From positions 96,001 to 160,000 of the forward strand of contig CAWHDT010000003.1 in NCBI GenBank assembly GCA_963828195.1: DNA of 64,000 bases, given 5' to 3'. Each line of letters starts with the position of its first letter. Positions within the stretch are counted from its first letter, which is position 1. A program made the position numbers and the translations under genes. The notes below the pieces were generated by a model. That model was not told where the DNA came from and did not search any database. It saw only the letters and a list, made by a program, of their open reading frames with translations. Positions 1 to 10,458 of the stretch are shown here, piece after piece. Origin of the DNA: Candidatus Bathyarchaeota archaeon. Its GTDB lineage: Archaea > Thermoproteota > Bathyarchaeia > Bathyarchaeales > Bathycorpusculaceae.

Positions 1-1406
1 GTTCCTACTCCGGCTATGGTGAATGCGTGGTCGATAGGCATCTTGAACGGACCATTCCATTGGCGAATAGGCGGACTGATTGAATCCTGCAGTGCCTTCT
101 TGAGGTCGTCAATTCCCTTACCTGTTAAGGCTGAGACCTCCACAATCTTTGCCTTCTCATAGGGCGTTCCCCTCAGAAGAAGCTGGATTTTCTGCTTGAC
201 CTCCTCAATTCTCTCACGGGAAGCCAAATCAACCTTGTTTAGGGCGACTACAAGATTTTTTATTCCGACGTCTTTGATTATTGCGAAATGCTCCACACTT
301 TGAACCTGAAGACCAAGATCAGCAGCCACAACCAGCACCGCTGCGTCAATTATGTTAGCGCCTGCCACTGCATGCCTAACCAGGCTGAAGTGCCCTGGCA
401 AATCAACAAGAGTAGCCAGATAGGGACCTAACGTGAAAGCGGAGAAGCCCATGTCCAGCGTCATCCCCCGCCGGGCAGCGTCTGGCGCCTTGTCCAGAGC
501 AGCCGTCGAAGGTTTTTCAGTAAGCTGGATAGCGAGCATTGTTTTGCCGTGGTCAACATGCCCGAAAAGACCAACATGAACTGGGATAAGTCCTTTGCCT
601 TCAGTCATGGTGTAACTTTTTGCGACTGCGTTTGCTTCTCTGAGGAATAATTCCACCGCATCAACAGACTTCAACCCGTCTGCCAGCGCCTTGTGCACCA
701 CTTCTTTTCTGATTACTGAAAGAGAAATGCCTAAGTCCGGGTTCTTGTACCGAGTCATAACCTCCATCATGGCTTTTCGGGTTTCCCTCTCGATTCCCCT
801 TGCCCTAAGTGATTTCTCGTCTTCCACAACTTTTTTGGGCTTGGACCTGATTGGCGCTTCAAGCCTTTTGAGAACCGCGGCAACGATGGTGTTGGCGATC
901 TCTTCGATGCTTTGCTTGCTTGGATCGACTACGGCGAGTGGTGTGTCCCATTTGTAATCGCCCTTGGGCGGGTCAAGTTTCTGGTTGATTTCCTCAATGA
1001 GAGACTGCGGTATGGGCGATCCTCGTTCGTGGTTCCATTTAGTAGCTACCTCAATGGGCGTATCAACATAGACTATGTCGTAGTCAGAGCCTGCTCGTTT
1101 GGCAATCTGCCTCAGCTCGCTCCTCATCGACTTGTAGTAGTTTAAGTCATCGCTGATGACGAGAAAACCATTCTCCAAACCAGTTGCAATCGCCTTCTCA
1201 TAAAGAGCCTTCACCGACGCTTCCCGTTCAGGTTTGAATCCTTTGGAGGAGTACGAGAGCATCTCCCGAAAATCGTCCGAGCTGACAACCATGGTCGATA
1301 TCCCATGTTTGTCCTCAAGCAGGGAAGCGACGTTTTTGCTGATGGTGGACTTTCCCGAAGAGGGCAATCCGCACATTATAAGCAGGTAAGGATAACTCTG
1401 AGACAC
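1..1406 (-). CDS. pstK-selB: PSTK (O-phosphoseryl-tRNA(Sec) kinase) fused in frame to selenocysteine-specific elongation factor SelB; 3' end beyond window edge
   Basis: Manual translation from GTG at 1406 (TTG at 1418 is an alternative): PYLLIMCGLPSSGKST ... DDLNYYKSMRSEL ... YKWDTP (PSTK motifs). Continues without a stop (..EANAVAKSYT-MTEGKG.., ATG at 608, same frame) into GHVDHGKT, RGMTLDMGFSAF, DLPGH, NKVD, VSA and KMPIDHAFTIAGVGT, typical of archaeal SelB. Missing from the ORF track because there is no stop before the edge. Confidence 0.9.
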   Translation of the reverse strand, partial: MSQSYPYLLIMCGLPSSGKSTISKNVASLLEDKHGISTMVVSSDDFREMLSYSSKGFKPEREASVKALYEKAIATGLENGFLVISDDLNYYKSMRSELRQIAKRAGSDYDIVYVDTPIEVATKWNHERGSPIPQSLIEEINQKLDPPKGDYKWDTPLAVVDPSKQSIEEIANTIVAAVLKRLEAPIRSKPKKVVEDEKSLRARGIERETRKAMMEVMTRYKNPDLGISLSVIRKEVVHKALADGLKSVDAVELFLREANAVAKSYTMTEGKGLIPVHVGLFGHVDHGKTMLAIQLTEKPSTAALDKAPDAARRGMTLDMGFSAFTLGPYLATLVDLPGHFSLVRHAVAGANIIDAAVLVVAADLGLQVQSVEHFAIIKDVGIKNLVVALNKVDLASRERIEEVKQKIQLLLRGTPYEKAKIVEVSALTGKGIDDLKKALQDSISPPIRQWNGPFKMPIDHAFTIAGVG

Positions 1407-1615
1407 CGTTTTCCCCAATTGTCTAACCCATCTTGGGTTTATAATTCTGCCGAACGTCAGACTTGATGATTTCAAGTCGCTTAGCTAGTTTGGGCTAAGA
1501 ACATCAAAAATCACATTAAGCAACGCCATCTTAACGGCTTGCAGTATGAAGACCGGACCGTTGCAACGATATTAGCGCGGAGCGCAAAGTGTAGACACAA
1601 GCACATTTTAAGAGT

Positions 1616-2197
1616 TCATTTTGAGTTGGTCGGCTGATAGGTTGCTACTATAACTCCCTTGTCAGTCGTCTTGGAGCTAACGAGCTTCAATGAAGTGAAA
1701 GGAACACCGTCGGCAAAAAGACGACGCCCTTCTCCCAGAACCAGCGGATGAATTAAAAGAACATACTCGTCTATCAGATTGCTATGCATTATTGACCGTA
1801 TCAACCCGCCGCTGCCCATTATTACAAGATCCTTTTCTAGCTCTTTCTTCAGCTTAAAAAGCGTCTCTTCAACGTCGCCATTAATCAGCGTGGAATTTTT
1901 CCATGGCAAAGGTTGCTTTAACGTTCTGGATACGACATACTTTTGCGTGTTATCCATATATGATGAGTAAGGGCTATCTGTTCGCTTGGGCCAGACTTTA
2001 AAAAAGCCCTCATAAGTCGTTCGGCCAAGCAGCAAACCGCCTGCATTAGCCATTGCCTCTCCTGCTGAAGGCATGGCTGCATACGGCGCACCCCATCCGC
2101 CACGTGTAAAGCCACCACGAGTATCCTCGTCAGGTCGCGCCGGCGCCTGCATAACCCCATCTAAAGTCAAATTCATGAATACAATGATTTTACCCAT
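1616..2197 (-). CDS. Dihydrofolate reductase / RibD C-terminal domain family protein
   Basis: N-terminal LTLDGVMQAP, LLGRTTY, GSGGL, DEYVLLIHPLVLGEGRRLF motifs. Confidence 0.9.
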   Translation of the reverse strand: MGKIIVFMNLTLDGVMQAPARPDEDTRGGFTRGGWGAPYAAMPSAGEAMANAGGLLLGRTTYEGFFKVWPKRTDSPYSSYMDNTQKYVVSRTLKQPLPWKNSTLINGDVEETLFKLKKELEKDLVIMGSGGLIRSIMHSNLIDEYVLLIHPLVLGEGRRLFADGVPFTSLKLVSSKTTDKGVIVATYQPTNSK

Positions 2198-2590: not shown

Positions 2591-2650
2591 TTTTCAAATA
2601 ACCACCTAAAAATTAACATTTTACTAAAAATAGCCTACTTTAATAAACCT

Positions 2651-2758
2651 TTGCTGACGGCGATTTTTCCTGAAGAAGGCAATCTGCGCGTTACAAGCAG
2701 GTGAGATAACTCTGAGACATCCGTTTCCCCAACGTCTATTCAATCTTCAGTCTATAAT
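2651..2758 (-). repeat. Degenerate copy of the pstK 5' end and promoter (1336-1445)
   Basis: AAGCAGGTGAGATAACTCTGAGACATCCGTTTCCCCAA vs AAGCAGGTAAGGATAACTCTGAGACACCGTTTTCCCCAA; similarity extends over the P-loop codons and TATA region. Confidence 0.8.
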
Positions 2759-2884
2759 TGTGTCACATCTCACCCTTTGGCAAACGCTTGCTTGAAACTT
2801 GTGAGTTTACGCTGAGAAAAAACAGGAAAACATGTGAAAAAATAAAAGGGATAGATGGTATTTCTAGCATAGGAGAATGACCTT

Positions 2885-3493
2885 TTGAGGAAAATTATTG
2901 TTTTGTCGTTTATAACGCTCGATGGCGTCATGCAGGCGCCGGGTGGTCAAACGGAGGATACAAGCGGCGGCTTCAAGTACGGCGGCTGGGCATTTCCGCA
3001 TTTTGATGATTTTCTGGGTAAGGTTATGAGTGATCAAATGGGGCATCCTTTTGATCTATTGCTCGGTCGAAAGACCTACGACATCTGGGCCGACTATTGG
3101 CCCATGCACAATGACGAAAGGGACCCTGTTGGTTCGGGCATTAACAAAGCGACAAAGTTCGTGGCTTCGCATTCGCCTGTAAAATCCAGCTGGCCCACTA
3201 CTGTGCAATTACAGGGAGATGTTGCTGAAGCAGTTAAGAAGTTGAAACATCAAGATGGGCCTGAACTTCAAGTTCACGGAAGCGGCAACCTTATTCAGAT
3301 GCTCTTGAAAGAGGATTTGGTCGATGAGATGTGGCTAAAGATTTTTCCGATAACGCTCGGTTCAGGAAAACGCTTGTTTGCCGAAGGCACAATGCCTGCA
3401 GCATTTACTCTTATGGAATCCAGAACCTCGCCGAAGGGAGTAATCATAGCTTCTTACAGGCGAAGCGGAAAAGTGGAAACAGGATCGTTTTGA
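2885..3493 (+). CDS. Dihydrofolate reductase / RibD C-terminal domain family protein
   Basis: ITLDGVMQAPGG, LLGRKTY, HGSGNL, GSGKRLF motifs; paralog of 1616-2197. Confidence 0.9.
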   Translation: MRKIIVLSFITLDGVMQAPGGQTEDTSGGFKYGGWAFPHFDDFLGKVMSDQMGHPFDLLLGRKTYDIWADYWPMHNDERDPVGSGINKATKFVASHSPVKSSWPTTVQLQGDVAEAVKKLKHQDGPELQVHGSGNLIQMLLKEDLVDEMWLKIFPITLGSGKRLFAEGTMPAAFTLMESRTSPKGVIIASYRRSGKVETGSF

Positions 3494-3614: not shown

Positions 3615-4928
3615 GTGTTGCCGTTTGATAAGTTGAAGGCCACAATCCCCAAGAGCATACTTGACAGAGGCTTAACAGTGTTAGGCACGGAGTCAGAGCC
3701 GATAAAACTGCTTTTCGAGCAAAGACGTGTGCCCCAAGAAGGCTGGAAAGACAGCCAAATCGAAGAACTGCTGAATTTGCTGGCTACGATGGATTCTGAC
3801 AAGGACAGCAAAGCAGTTTTTCTTGGCGAAAGAGAGGGCAGGGTTGCGTCCCCAGCAGTTTCAAAGTTGGCAGCTGCATTTCACCATGGGGTAGGAAGGT
3901 CAGGCGACCTCACCGAAGCCCAGCCTAAAGCGGCAGGCGCGTCTCTGATGTATTTCTTCGCTAACAAATTGGCAACTGACGCCCTGAAAAGGTTCGGTGC
4001 GCCAAACATCAAGAAGGCAGTGGTTTTTCCTGTGGCAACGGGAATGACGCTTGCTCTTGCCTTATGCGCCGCAAGAAACCAAACTGGGGGAAAAGAGGTT
4101 GTTTACCCGCAGATTGACCTCAAGACTCCTTTGAAGGCGATTCGTCTTGCTGGCCTTCAAGAAAGAATAGTTGCAGGAGAAGTCTACGGAGACGCAGTAA
4201 ACGTTCCCACAGAAGAGATAGAAAAAGCAGTTAACGAAAATACTGCCGCGATTCTGTCAACAACCACGTTCTTTGCTCCCAGAGAACCCGATAAGATCAA
4301 AGAAATCGCAAAAATCGCGGAGGAGAAAAAAGTACCGCATATCATAAACAACGCGTTTGGAGTGCAGAGCCGCGAGATCATGAAGCTGGTGAGAGGCGCA
4401 GTTGACGCGGGACGCGTAGACGCCATAGTGCAGAGCACAGACAAGAATTTCCTCACCCCGGTCGGGGGAGCAATAGTCGCTTCGCCAAACGAAGAATTCT
4501 TAGACGCCGTTTCTGAAACCTATGCGGGGAGAGCAACAGCCGCGCCCATAGCGCAGTTCTTGGCAGCCGTGCTGTCGATTGGGCTGGAAGGCTACGAGAA
4601 GCTGAGAACCCAGCAAGAAGAGAACCGAAAGTTCCTTGAATCAGCCTTGAAGGAAGTTGCAGAGAGGCATTCGCAGCGTATACTGAATGTTTATAATCCG
4701 ATATCCGTGGCTATGACGCTGGATGGATTGGACGCCAAGAAAATAGGCAAAGCCTTGTACGCGGCAAGAGTCAACGGTGCAAGAGCGCTGGAGAAAAATG
4801 ATTTCGGAGTATGCTGCCCACAGTATGTCTCATCCTACATTAACTTTGACGCCAGCATAGGAATACAAAAAAACGAAATCACCCTGGCGGCAGAGAGGTT
4901 AGACAAGGTTTTGGAAACAGTGGCGTAG
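3615..4928 (+). CDS. spcS: O-phosphoseryl-tRNA(Sec) selenium transferase (SepSecS)
   Basis: GEREGRV, HGVGRSGDLTEAQPKAAG, PVATGMTL, FFAPR, HIINNAFG, VQSTDKNF (PLP lysine), YAGRA motifs of SepSecS; next to tRNA-Sec. Confidence 0.95.
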   Translation: MLPFDKLKATIPKSILDRGLTVLGTESEPIKLLFEQRRVPQEGWKDSQIEELLNLLATMDSDKDSKAVFLGEREGRVASPAVSKLAAAFHHGVGRSGDLTEAQPKAAGASLMYFFANKLATDALKRFGAPNIKKAVVFPVATGMTLALALCAARNQTGGKEVVYPQIDLKTPLKAIRLAGLQERIVAGEVYGDAVNVPTEEIEKAVNENTAAILSTTTFFAPREPDKIKEIAKIAEEKKVPHIINNAFGVQSREIMKLVRGAVDAGRVDAIVQSTDKNFLTPVGGAIVASPNEEFLDAVSETYAGRATAAPIAQFLAAVLSIGLEGYEKLRTQQEENRKFLESALKEVAERHSQRILNVYNPISVAMTLDGLDAKKIGKALYAARVNGARALEKNDFGVCCPQYVSSYINFDASIGIQKNEITLAAERLDKVLETVA

Positions 4929-5018
4929 TGGCGGCGTCCAAGGGGAATCGGACCCCGAGACCTTGCGGGCTCATCGGATTTGAAGTCCGATGCTAGGACC
5001 ACCTAGCCGTGGGACGCC
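4929..5018 (-). tRNA. selC: tRNA-Sec (anticodon UCA), 9/4 fold, CCA encoded
   Basis: GGCGUCCCA CG GCUAGG-UGGU-CCUAGC AUCGGA-CUUCAAA-UCCGAU GAGCCC-GCAA-GGUCUC GGGG-UCCGAUU-CCCC UUGGACGCC GCCA. 9-bp acceptor (one C.U), 6-bp D stem, 6-bp anticodon stem, long variable arm, 4-bp T stem, G73. Confidence 0.97.
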
Positions 5019-7950: not shown

Positions 7951-10458
7951 CTACTTTGCTGCGGGTTGAGGGACGGGTTTAACCACAGGGGCTGGGGCTG
8001 CTGCTTTGCGTTTGAGCATGTTCTCTAAGGTTGGTTGAAGCTTTGCGTTTTCCGCTTGTATCTTTTCTTTTCCCAGTGCCTCCATCTGCTCGTTCATTTC
8101 CTTGACGATACTGACGAATTTCTCTCCTTCAGCTGATGAAACATAATCAACCCTGAATCTTTCTTTGCTCAATCCAAGCTTTGTCAGCATTCCAGCTAAG
8201 GCATCCATGCGCGCTTTCATCCTGATGTTTCCTGAGATGTAGTGGCAGTCGCTGGGAAGATGGCAGGCGGTTATCAGTACCCCTGCGGCTCCCAGCCTAA
8301 ATGCTTCCATAACGAAGTCCCGATCTACCCGCCCAGTGCACATTACCCTTATCGCCCTTGTAGTAGGAGGGTATTCCAGCCGGCTCGTCCCCGCTCGGTC
8401 CGCGCCGGCGTAACCTCACCAGTTACACATAAACGTCAGTATCTTATCCTCGGGTTTGTTTTCTAAAGCAGCTCTGATTTGCGAGGTTATTTGTTCATCT
8501 GTAAAGTGCATCTGACTTATGGCGTCTTGTGGGCATTCAGCAACGCAGGTTCCGCATCCGTGGCATTGGGCTGCATTTATCTGGGCTGGTTGTCCCTCAG
8601 CCGCGGTTATGGCTCCGAAGGGACAGCTTTTCACGCAGACCCCGCATTTTGCCTTCACGTTTCTGCATTTGGCGATGTCTACTATTGAGACAATTGGCTC
8701 TATCTTCCATTTCGGCTGCGAAAGGATGGTTGCAGCTCTCGCCGCCGCGCCGCTTCCTTGCGCTACGCTGTAGGGTATGTCCTTTGGTCCCTGGCAAGCA
8801 CCTGCTAGGAATACTCCGTCCATAGGTGTGTCCATTGGTTTGAGCTTCGGGTGGCTTTCCATGAAGAACCCGTCTGATCCACGCGTTATGTGCAGGATGC
8901 TGGCCAATTCTTCGGCTCCTTTGCTGGGTATGGCGGCGGTGCTTAGCACAACAAGTTCGGCTTCGACTTCGATGGGTTGTCCAAGCGTCGAGTCCTCTGC
9001 TCGGATAGTCAAGTTTTTGGTTTTTGGGTCTTCCATTATTTGGGACGGTTTTCCCCTGATGAAGATGATTCCCATTTCACGGGCTCTTCGGTAGAATTCT
9101 TCGTAGCCTTTGGAGGGAGTGCGTATATCTATGTAGAAAAGGTAGACTTCCACTTCGTTATGGTAGTGTTCTTTGAGAAGGATGGCTTCTTTTAGCCCAT
9201 ACATGCAGCAGAAACCTGAACAGTACTCGTACTTCTTTACGTCTCTTGAGCCGACGCATTGGATGATGGCAACGCTTTTCGGTCTCTTTCCATCGGATGA
9301 GCGGACTACGTGTCCAGCTGTCGGGCCGCCTGCTGTAATGAGTCTCTCAAACTCCAGAGCTGTAATTACGTTATCGTATTTTCCATAGCCATACCTTGGA
9401 TCGTCATATGGTAGATAAATGTCGCAGCCTGTTGTTGCTATGATTGCTCCAACTTCCAACTCAACTTCTTCTGGCTTTTGATTAAAGTTGATGGCTTCAC
9501 GCGCGCCGCAGGCATCCACGCATTTGAAGCACTCTATGCAGTAATCCCTGTTTATCGAGTAGATAAGAGGCACTGCCTGATCAAACGGAATGGAGATGGC
9601 TTTTCTCACGCCTAAGTTCATATCCCACTCATTGGGGTATTCTATTGGGCAGGCGTCTTTGCATTCTCCGCAGCCAGTACATTTGTCGGCCATAACATAT
9701 TTCGGGTTTTTGCGAACTTTAACTCTGAAGTTGCCTACAAACCCCTCTACTTTGAGGATGTCCGCATTGGTTATTACTTGGACCTTAGGATGGCGCAGTA
9801 CTTCCACCATCCTAGGTCCTTCAATTCATATGCTGCAATCCAAAGTTGGAAAAGTCTTGTCGAGCTGTGCCATGTGTCCTCCTATGCTTGTGTTCTTCTC
9901 GACAAGGTATACTTGGAACCCCATATTAGCCAGATCCAGAGCGGAGTTGATGCCGGCAATGCCGCCGCCGATAACCAAGGCGTTTTTGGTTACAGGGACA
10001 TCCATGGGTTCAAGAGGCTTAAGCAGCCTCGCCTTGGCCACCGCCATCTTTATGGTATCTTTTGCTTTTGCTGTGGCTTCTTTTGGATTACTGGGATGGC
10101 ACCACGAAGCGAACTCACGTATGTTCGCCATTTCAAACACATAGGGATTTAGCCCTGCTTCACTTACGGTTTTCCTAAATGTTGGCTCATGCATCCTTGG
10201 GCTGCAAGCGGCTACGACGACACGGTTCAATCTGTGTTCTTTTATTGCTTTTCTGATTTCTTCTTGTCCCGGGTCAGCGCAGGTGTAGCGGTTTTCTTTA
10301 ACGTAGACTACGTCAGGTATAGTTTTTGCGTACTCGGCGACTGAAGGCACGTCCACGGTTCCTGCGATGTTCATGCCGCAGTGGCAGACGAAAACGCCAA
10401 TCCGTAGCTCTTCTGATTTTTGGGTTTCAGTTTGTTTTTGGGTTTCTGGGCTGCTCAT
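7951..10458 (-). CDS. hdrA: Selenoprotein HdrA-MvhD fusion (heterodisulfide reductase subunit A with C-terminal MvhD), two Sec codons, about 835 aa
   Basis: Three ORF-track pieces are one frame broken only by TGA at 9826-9828 ([15 protein letters not shown]; canonical DCSxC) and TGA at 8416-8418 ([18 protein letters not shown]; canonical MvhD CNWC). Also [20 protein letters not shown], ferredoxin motifs and VMCTGRV. Confidence 0.93.

Follow-up and report, generated by a model that had tools for sequence, protein, structure and literature searches.

The window analysed, a stretch of 64,000 nucleotides (G000:C3:96001-160000), carries at its left edge a minus-strand gene that extends beyond this edge (G000:C3:95214-97406; L003 5214-7406). 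The gene consists of one open reading frame (ORF) encoding 730 amino acids from a GTG start codon, in which an L-seryl-tRNA(Sec) kinase (PSTK) is followed by an archaeal SelB (aSelB) with no stop codon in between, the arrangement that defines the PSTK-aSelB fusion class. The minus-strand frame is unbroken from window position 1475 past the start codon at 1406 to window base 1, and from there to G000:C3:95214. The window itself holds the first 469 codons only; the SelB part continues beyond window base 1 for 786 nt, which include the sequence for its domains II-IV, and the whole aSelB module comprises residues 267-730 with four domains. The GTG (1406-1404), the ATG at the beginning of the SelB part (608-606), and an A5 run just ahead of it (T5 on the plus strand, 621-617) were all located in the letters of the window (Table 1). 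The choice of the GTG as start codon agrees with the relatives, for example, with the N-terminus MSQSYPYLL of P0122. A preliminary description of the window had placed PSTK (GTG 1406) and SelB (ATG 608) in one stop-free frame, which was confirmed when the ORF was read beyond the window. The product would be one polypeptide.

Table 1. Position and identification of the selenocysteine-related features in the window
Feature	Position in window	Strand	Evidence or remarks
PSTK-aSelB fusion gene, part inside the window	1..1406	-	One open frame; matches to TIGR00475 and PF08433
PSTK module, residues 1-266 (P-loop kinase domain and C-terminal helical domain)	609..1406	-	Alignment to 3adb/3a4l
Junction, residues ~263-273, short coil	588..620	-	AF2 secondary structure and pLDDT; F254-H277 spacing
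aSelB module, residues 267-469 in the window (G domain with GHVDHGK motif)	1..608	-	Alignment to 4ac9; Pfam
SepSecS (O-phosphoseryl-tRNA(Sec) selenium transferase)	3615..4928	+	PF05889, 392.9 bits, profile positions 1-389 of 389
tRNA-Sec, anticodon TCA	4933..5018	-	ARAGORN; Rfam RF01852, 65.8 bits (gathering score 47)
HdrA-MvhD-like gene	7951..10458	-	Two in-frame TGA, at residues 211 (..DCSIU..) and 681 (..CNWU..)

The N-terminal module matched the Pfam family KTI12/PSTK (PF08433) at residues 8-220 with 128-130 bits (cut-off 22). The top NCBIfam kinase match was TIGR03574 over model positions 1-227 of 249. Its score of 153-157 bits is below the equivalog cut-off of 290.5, so the module is regarded as a divergent PSTK. 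Residues 6-257 were aligned to chain positions 6-245 of the L-seryl-tRNA(Sec) kinase of M. jannaschii (3adb/3a4l; E ~1e-30, 6e-30). This solved PSTK is a separate protein, which the fused module matches from end to end at roughly 30-35% identity as judged from the printed alignment. Conservation was assessed in an alignment of 93 fused sequences, consisting of the query and 92 of the 120 best database matches. Close matches (at least 77% identity) were used only at 100% query coverage, by which 28 N-terminally shorter or truncated sequences were dropped, and the distant matches were all kept. Residues G13, P15, G18, K19, D86, and D87 are invariant in this alignment. The P-loop and the acidic, Walker-B-like motif, which we take to be the catalytic motifs, are thus kept, and the module extends over its full length, with the C-terminal tRNA-binding domain present. 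No PSTK match other than the fused gene was obtained in the genome (G000). The view that the module is degenerate and does no more than bind tRNA was rejected as the leading one, since both motifs are unchanged throughout the alignment and a second PSTK is absent from the genome. As this sole PSTK match occurs in a genome with SepSecS, tRNA-Sec, SelD, and a TGA-containing HdrA gene, the module is predicted to be a Ser-tRNA(Sec) kinase.

The C-terminal module was recognized by the NCBIfam model TIGR00475 (selB) with 276-278 bits (276.4; cut-off 242.25). The Pfam domains GTP_EFTU (residues 277-443), GTP_EFTU_D2 (468-533), and aSelB_III (576-641; 27.2 bits, cut-off 19) follow one another, and residues 276-723 align to positions 20-476 of the M. 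maripaludis SelB chain 4ac9, that is, to nearly the whole chain (E 9.5e-72). The M. maripaludis aSelB, too, is a separate protein that the fused module matches from end to end; in contrast to such separate PSTK and aSelB proteins, the two modules are here connected by a linker of about 11 residues within the same polypeptide. No variation was seen among the 93 relatives in G279, G282, H283, H286, K288, and T289, and almost none in D335, N390, and D393; by our own reading, these conserved G-domain residues belong to the motifs G1-G4. The module, thus, has the score above cut-off, the four domains, and the intact GTP-binding motifs of an archaeal SelB. No second SelB was found among the matches listed for this genome. 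Judged from the alignments to the solved structures, both modules are full length and neither is a fragment.

The genes for SepSecS and tRNA-Sec are located 2-3.5 kb from the fused gene, and SepSecS catalyses the step between the two fused activities. A gene for SelD was identified on another contig (232.8 bits, cut-off 125). The HdrA-MvhD-like gene encodes an HdrA-like flavoprotein/ferredoxin that reaches its MvhD-like tail only when both TGA codons are read as Sec, and both codons are at usual Sec positions. With the names read from Fer4/FAD matches and motifs, the gene probably encodes a double selenoprotein. From its gene content, the organism appears to run a complete, working Sec system. 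Kinase and elongation-factor function would both have to come from the product of the fused gene, the only PSTK match of the genome and its only SelB among the matches listed. As aligned by Rfam, the acceptor stem of the tRNA-Sec comprises 9 bp, with one non-standard pair close to its base, the D-stem 6 bp, and the T-stem 4 bp. A U6:U67 feature is reported for Bathyarchaeota tRNA-Sec in the available part of a 2022 review (PMC9499178).

The fusion is the normal state of the gene among its relatives. The preliminary description had proposed to search for proteins with PSTK and SelB domains together, and such proteins were found. In a search of 5.8 billion proteins, both PF08433 and PF00009 were present in 118 of the best 120 database relatives (42-90% identity); 116 of the 120 are 683-741 amino acids long, and the two exceptions are encoded on contigs of 1.5-1.75 kb. 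The named sources of these sequences are Bathyarchaeota, Bathyarchaeia, and Nitrososphaerota, with one record labelled Nanoarchaeia. The closest named relatives among the matches listed (P0026, P0038, and P0059; 81-85% identity) are labelled Candidatus Bathyarchaeota or Bathyarchaeia archaeon. In a sample of 401 genomes of the same class, 13 carriers with 14 PSTK matches were detected, all of them in frames whose length exceeds that of a separate PSTK. For 13 matches, the open frame comprises 706-771 amino acids. In the 14th (G262, 555 amino acids), a frameshift interrupts SelB, and the junction is intact. The junction was read at 12 loci and is in frame in every one of them, down to 41% identity; the other two matches (the second copy of G413 with 740 and G250 with 706 amino acids) were judged by the length of the open frame. 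Outside the family, but within the same order, G039 has a fused ORF of 732 amino acids (45% identity) directly followed by SepSecS, and a divergent ORF of 283 amino acids beside it is SelD-like by eye. A library of representatives at 50% identity gave a similar picture: the PSTK half has its seven nearest full-length relatives among proteins of 704-737 amino acids, and separate PSTKs (~250-270 amino acids) start at 39% identity and below. The complete Sec system of this organism, thus, has an unusual but conserved architecture.

The distribution of the fusion in this sample of 401 genomes is patchy, with 4 carriers among 40 other genomes of the same genus and 4 among 12 of a sister genus. G413, which belongs to the same genus, has two fused genes (G413:C1:952757-953539 and G413:C1:2828770-2829552) with 69% and 59% identity over the PSTK part and open frames of 744 and 740 amino acids. 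In another genome of the genus, G016, a stretch of 44 residues (G016:C10:79446-79577) is 84% identical to the SelB C-terminus, and no other PSTK- or SelB-specific match was found among the matches listed for this genome; the stretch looks like the remnant of a lost gene.

The joint between the modules was further characterized at the level of structure prediction, spacing, and codons. In the AF2 model built from the 93-sequence alignment (mean pLDDT 87.7, pTM 0.67), the last PSTK helix (residues 247-262) leads into a coil of about 11 residues (263-273) with lower confidence, which connects to the first G-domain strand (274-282). In 85 of the 93 fused proteins, the invariant-like residues F254 and H277 show a spacing of exactly 22 residues. 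As the linker length is nearly fixed, we infer a compact two-module protein. Complex prediction for the PSTK module with the SelB module, based on the same alignment, gave a median score of 0.33, and one control reached 0.43, which favours neither contact between the modules nor its absence. Across the 33 junction codons, 86 synonymous and 39 non-synonymous codon differences to G000 were counted in seven of 11 relatives; L029 was left out because of a one-codon insertion and L033-L035 because they are too divergent.

Fusions of this type have been described before. In the preliminary description, no such fusion was known to its author, an assessment that has to be corrected: single-ORF PSTK-aSelB fusions were reported for diverse Bathyarchaeota and one Archaeoglobus (Mukai et al., 2022, Front Genet, section 3.4.1; PMC8762117), and the available part of the 2022 review covers them as well (PMC9499178). 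The module order is the same in the published class and in the present gene, with PSTK at the N-terminus and aSelB at the C-terminus of one ORF. The present gene is clustered with SepSecS and tRNA-Sec, and its architecture is no different from that of the class described by Mukai et al. (PMC8762117). Because the closest named relatives among the matches listed are Bathyarchaeota or Bathyarchaeia, the locus belongs to this described class, for which occurrence in Bathyarchaeota was found here in P0026, P0038, and P0059. It is one more example of an already published architecture and not a discovery. For a small Sifarchaeia lineage, the accessible portion of section 3.4.2 of the same article (PMC8762117) describes adjacent PSTK and aSelB ORFs separated by a stop codon. 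Gene order and adjacency are the same there, whereas the frame is continuous in the present gene and its sampled relatives. No experimental study of a fused PSTK-SelB protein was recognized in the literature searched, and the fusion is not mentioned in the available part of a 2026 review (PMC13188914).

On the sequence evidence, it is highly probable that the gene is a genuine, conserved, bifunctional PSTK-aSelB gene from a member of the Bathyarchaeia that uses Sec, and for this gene a hand-over of tRNA(Sec) is proposed. The N-terminal module would phosphorylate Ser-tRNA(Sec), SepSecS would turn the Sep product into Sec-tRNA(Sec), and the tethered SelB module would bind the Sec-tRNA(Sec) together with GTP and carry it to UGA codons. 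The tether would hold the first and the last handler of tRNA(Sec) in proximity and at a 1:1 ratio, which might favour a hand-over without the release of mis-acylated intermediates. That the fusion channels tRNA(Sec) from synthesis to the ribosome, as suggested in the preliminary description, is a reasonable assumption. Solved PSTKs dimerise, and if the PSTK module does the same, two SelB modules would be paired. A more far-reaching version seems possible rather than likely: the fusion might serve as a tRNA(Sec) carrier, and not for protection from SepCysS, in which the C-terminal domain of PSTK holds the body of the tRNA while the acceptor end moves from the kinase to SepSecS and on to SelB, with the PSTK dimer forming a two-headed SelB. 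If this holds true, synthesis and delivery of archaeal Sec-tRNA would be physically coupled in one particle.

The alternative that survives best is that free SelB is also produced by internal initiation at ATG 608 and that the fusion mainly couples the expression of the two activities. The ATG is placed where a separate aSelB would begin, about 10 residues ahead of the GHVDHGK strand, and some Met is found within 14 residues upstream in 49 of the 93 relatives. A Met in the column of ATG 608 itself, however, is present in only 23 of the 93; the residues found there in the others include Leu (21), Lys (19), Ile (7), Val (5), and Arg (5). At the position of the ATG, G387 has GTG and G391 has ATA. 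No Met is present near the junction at three loci (L025, L031, and L035) or in G075, and the sole Met of L034, as in G136, is about 10 codons ahead of the HVG motif. By eye, no GGAGG/GGTG-like stretch was seen in the 30 nt before the ATG, and the nearly fixed length of the linker points to a constraint on the joined protein. Internal initiation, therefore, appears improbable, and a product that acts in the joined form is preferred.

A different purpose of the fusion has been put forward in the literature, namely, the protection of Sep-tRNA(Sec) from SepCysS in organisms that possess the SepRS-SepCysS pathway and lack the adapter SepCysE (PMC8762117, section 3.4.1; repeated in the available part of PMC9499178). 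The proposal rests mainly on one Archaeoglobus genome (PMC8762117). Mukai et al. (PMC8762117) tie the fusion to SepRS-SepCysS without SepCysE, whereas neither SepRS nor SepCysS was detected in the 13 carriers of our sample. In 14 genomes, comprising these 13 carriers and G036 with a separate PSTK, SepRS (TIGR00470) and SepCysS (TIGR02539) were above the cut-off in none and CysRS in all 14, so that the trait associated with the fusion class was not observed here. The SepRS model works in this class of archaea, as 40 of the 401 genomes scored above the cut-off, none of them a carrier; since only ~1.3 overlaps with carriers are expected by chance and related genomes are not independent, this mutual exclusion is not significant. 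The carrier genomes are 84-98% complete, so a gene may have been missed once, but that this happened 13 times is unlikely. With 13 of 13 carriers devoid of SepRS and SepCysS, shielding from SepCysS cannot explain the fusion in these genomes and is considered a very improbable reason for its existence. What the genome comparison does show is that carriers retain the fusion in the absence of the pathway from which it was proposed to give protection. A hand-along of tRNA(Sec) or a fixed stoichiometry would be the more likely purpose. The only published functional rationale is, thereby, removed for these genomes. The absence of SepRS and SepCysS in carriers goes beyond the text of PMC8762117 and the available part of PMC9499178, but the figure or the supplements of PMC8762117 may already show it.

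Besides its CysRS, G000 has a second, shorter CysRS-like gene (G000:C5:234635-235879; 309.6 bits, cut-off 340) with an open frame of 416 amino acids. Counterparts in four relatives each contain one in-frame stop codon (TAA, TGA, or TAG). Three tRNA-Cys genes are present in G000.

The weakest alternative is an artefactual or very recently arisen fusion: one extra nucleotide in the A5/T5 run (617-621), introduced by sequencing or assembly error or by a new mutation, would have joined two genes whose normal arrangement is an ATGA overlap. Homopolymers are error-prone, and the arithmetic behind this caveat of the preliminary description is correct: removal of one base from the run leads to ..KVTP* in the +1 frame, with a stop codon overlapping the SelB ATG. 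A close public relative, P0122 (91% identity), is a PSTK of 268 amino acids with a frameshifted tail, but the tail begins about 17 codons ahead of the junction. One contig carries P0129 and P0136 as two pieces, and several short related proteins are encoded on contigs of 1-2.5 kb. Such split or short relatives resemble occasional breaks or truncations in a gene that is normally fused. Against the artefact stands the frame itself, which is shared through the junction by all 12 loci and by 118 of the best 120 database relatives. The run is shorter in three close relatives: G262, G247, and G391 have GCT AAA AGT (an A4 run) instead of the GCA AAA AGT found here and keep an identical frame. In L028-L031, which belong to the same family, the ATG position is followed by a codon with G as its first base, which leaves no ATGA overlap there. 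The Met-free junctions at L025, L031, and L035 and the predominance of synonymous over non-synonymous codon differences speak against it as well. A stop overlapping the SelB ATG, which at all orthologous loci would have refuted the fusion according to the preliminary description, was found at none of the 12 junctions, and an origin by a recent insertion or assembly error is refuted by the comparison. A homopolymer error, plausible as it was, can thus be dismissed with near certainty, and the sequence comparison confirms the fusion as a genuine conserved gene.

Two paralogous genes for proteins with a RibD_C domain (dihydrofolate-reductase-like) are located between the PSTK-SelB gene and SepSecS at window positions 1616-2197 (minus strand) and 2885-3493 (plus strand); no link of these paralogues to the Sec system is evident. 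A copy of about 115 nt at 2650-2762 (minus strand) is 78-79% identical to window positions 1335-1449, which cover the upstream region and the first ~25 codons of the fusion gene including the P-loop. Between this relic and the start of the fusion gene lie, both on the minus strand, a weak SnoaL-like match (2270-2590, below the Pfam cut-off) and the first of the two RibD_C genes, which suggests an insertion or a local duplication. By eye, the copy contains a 1-nt deletion followed by a stop codon and looks non-coding.
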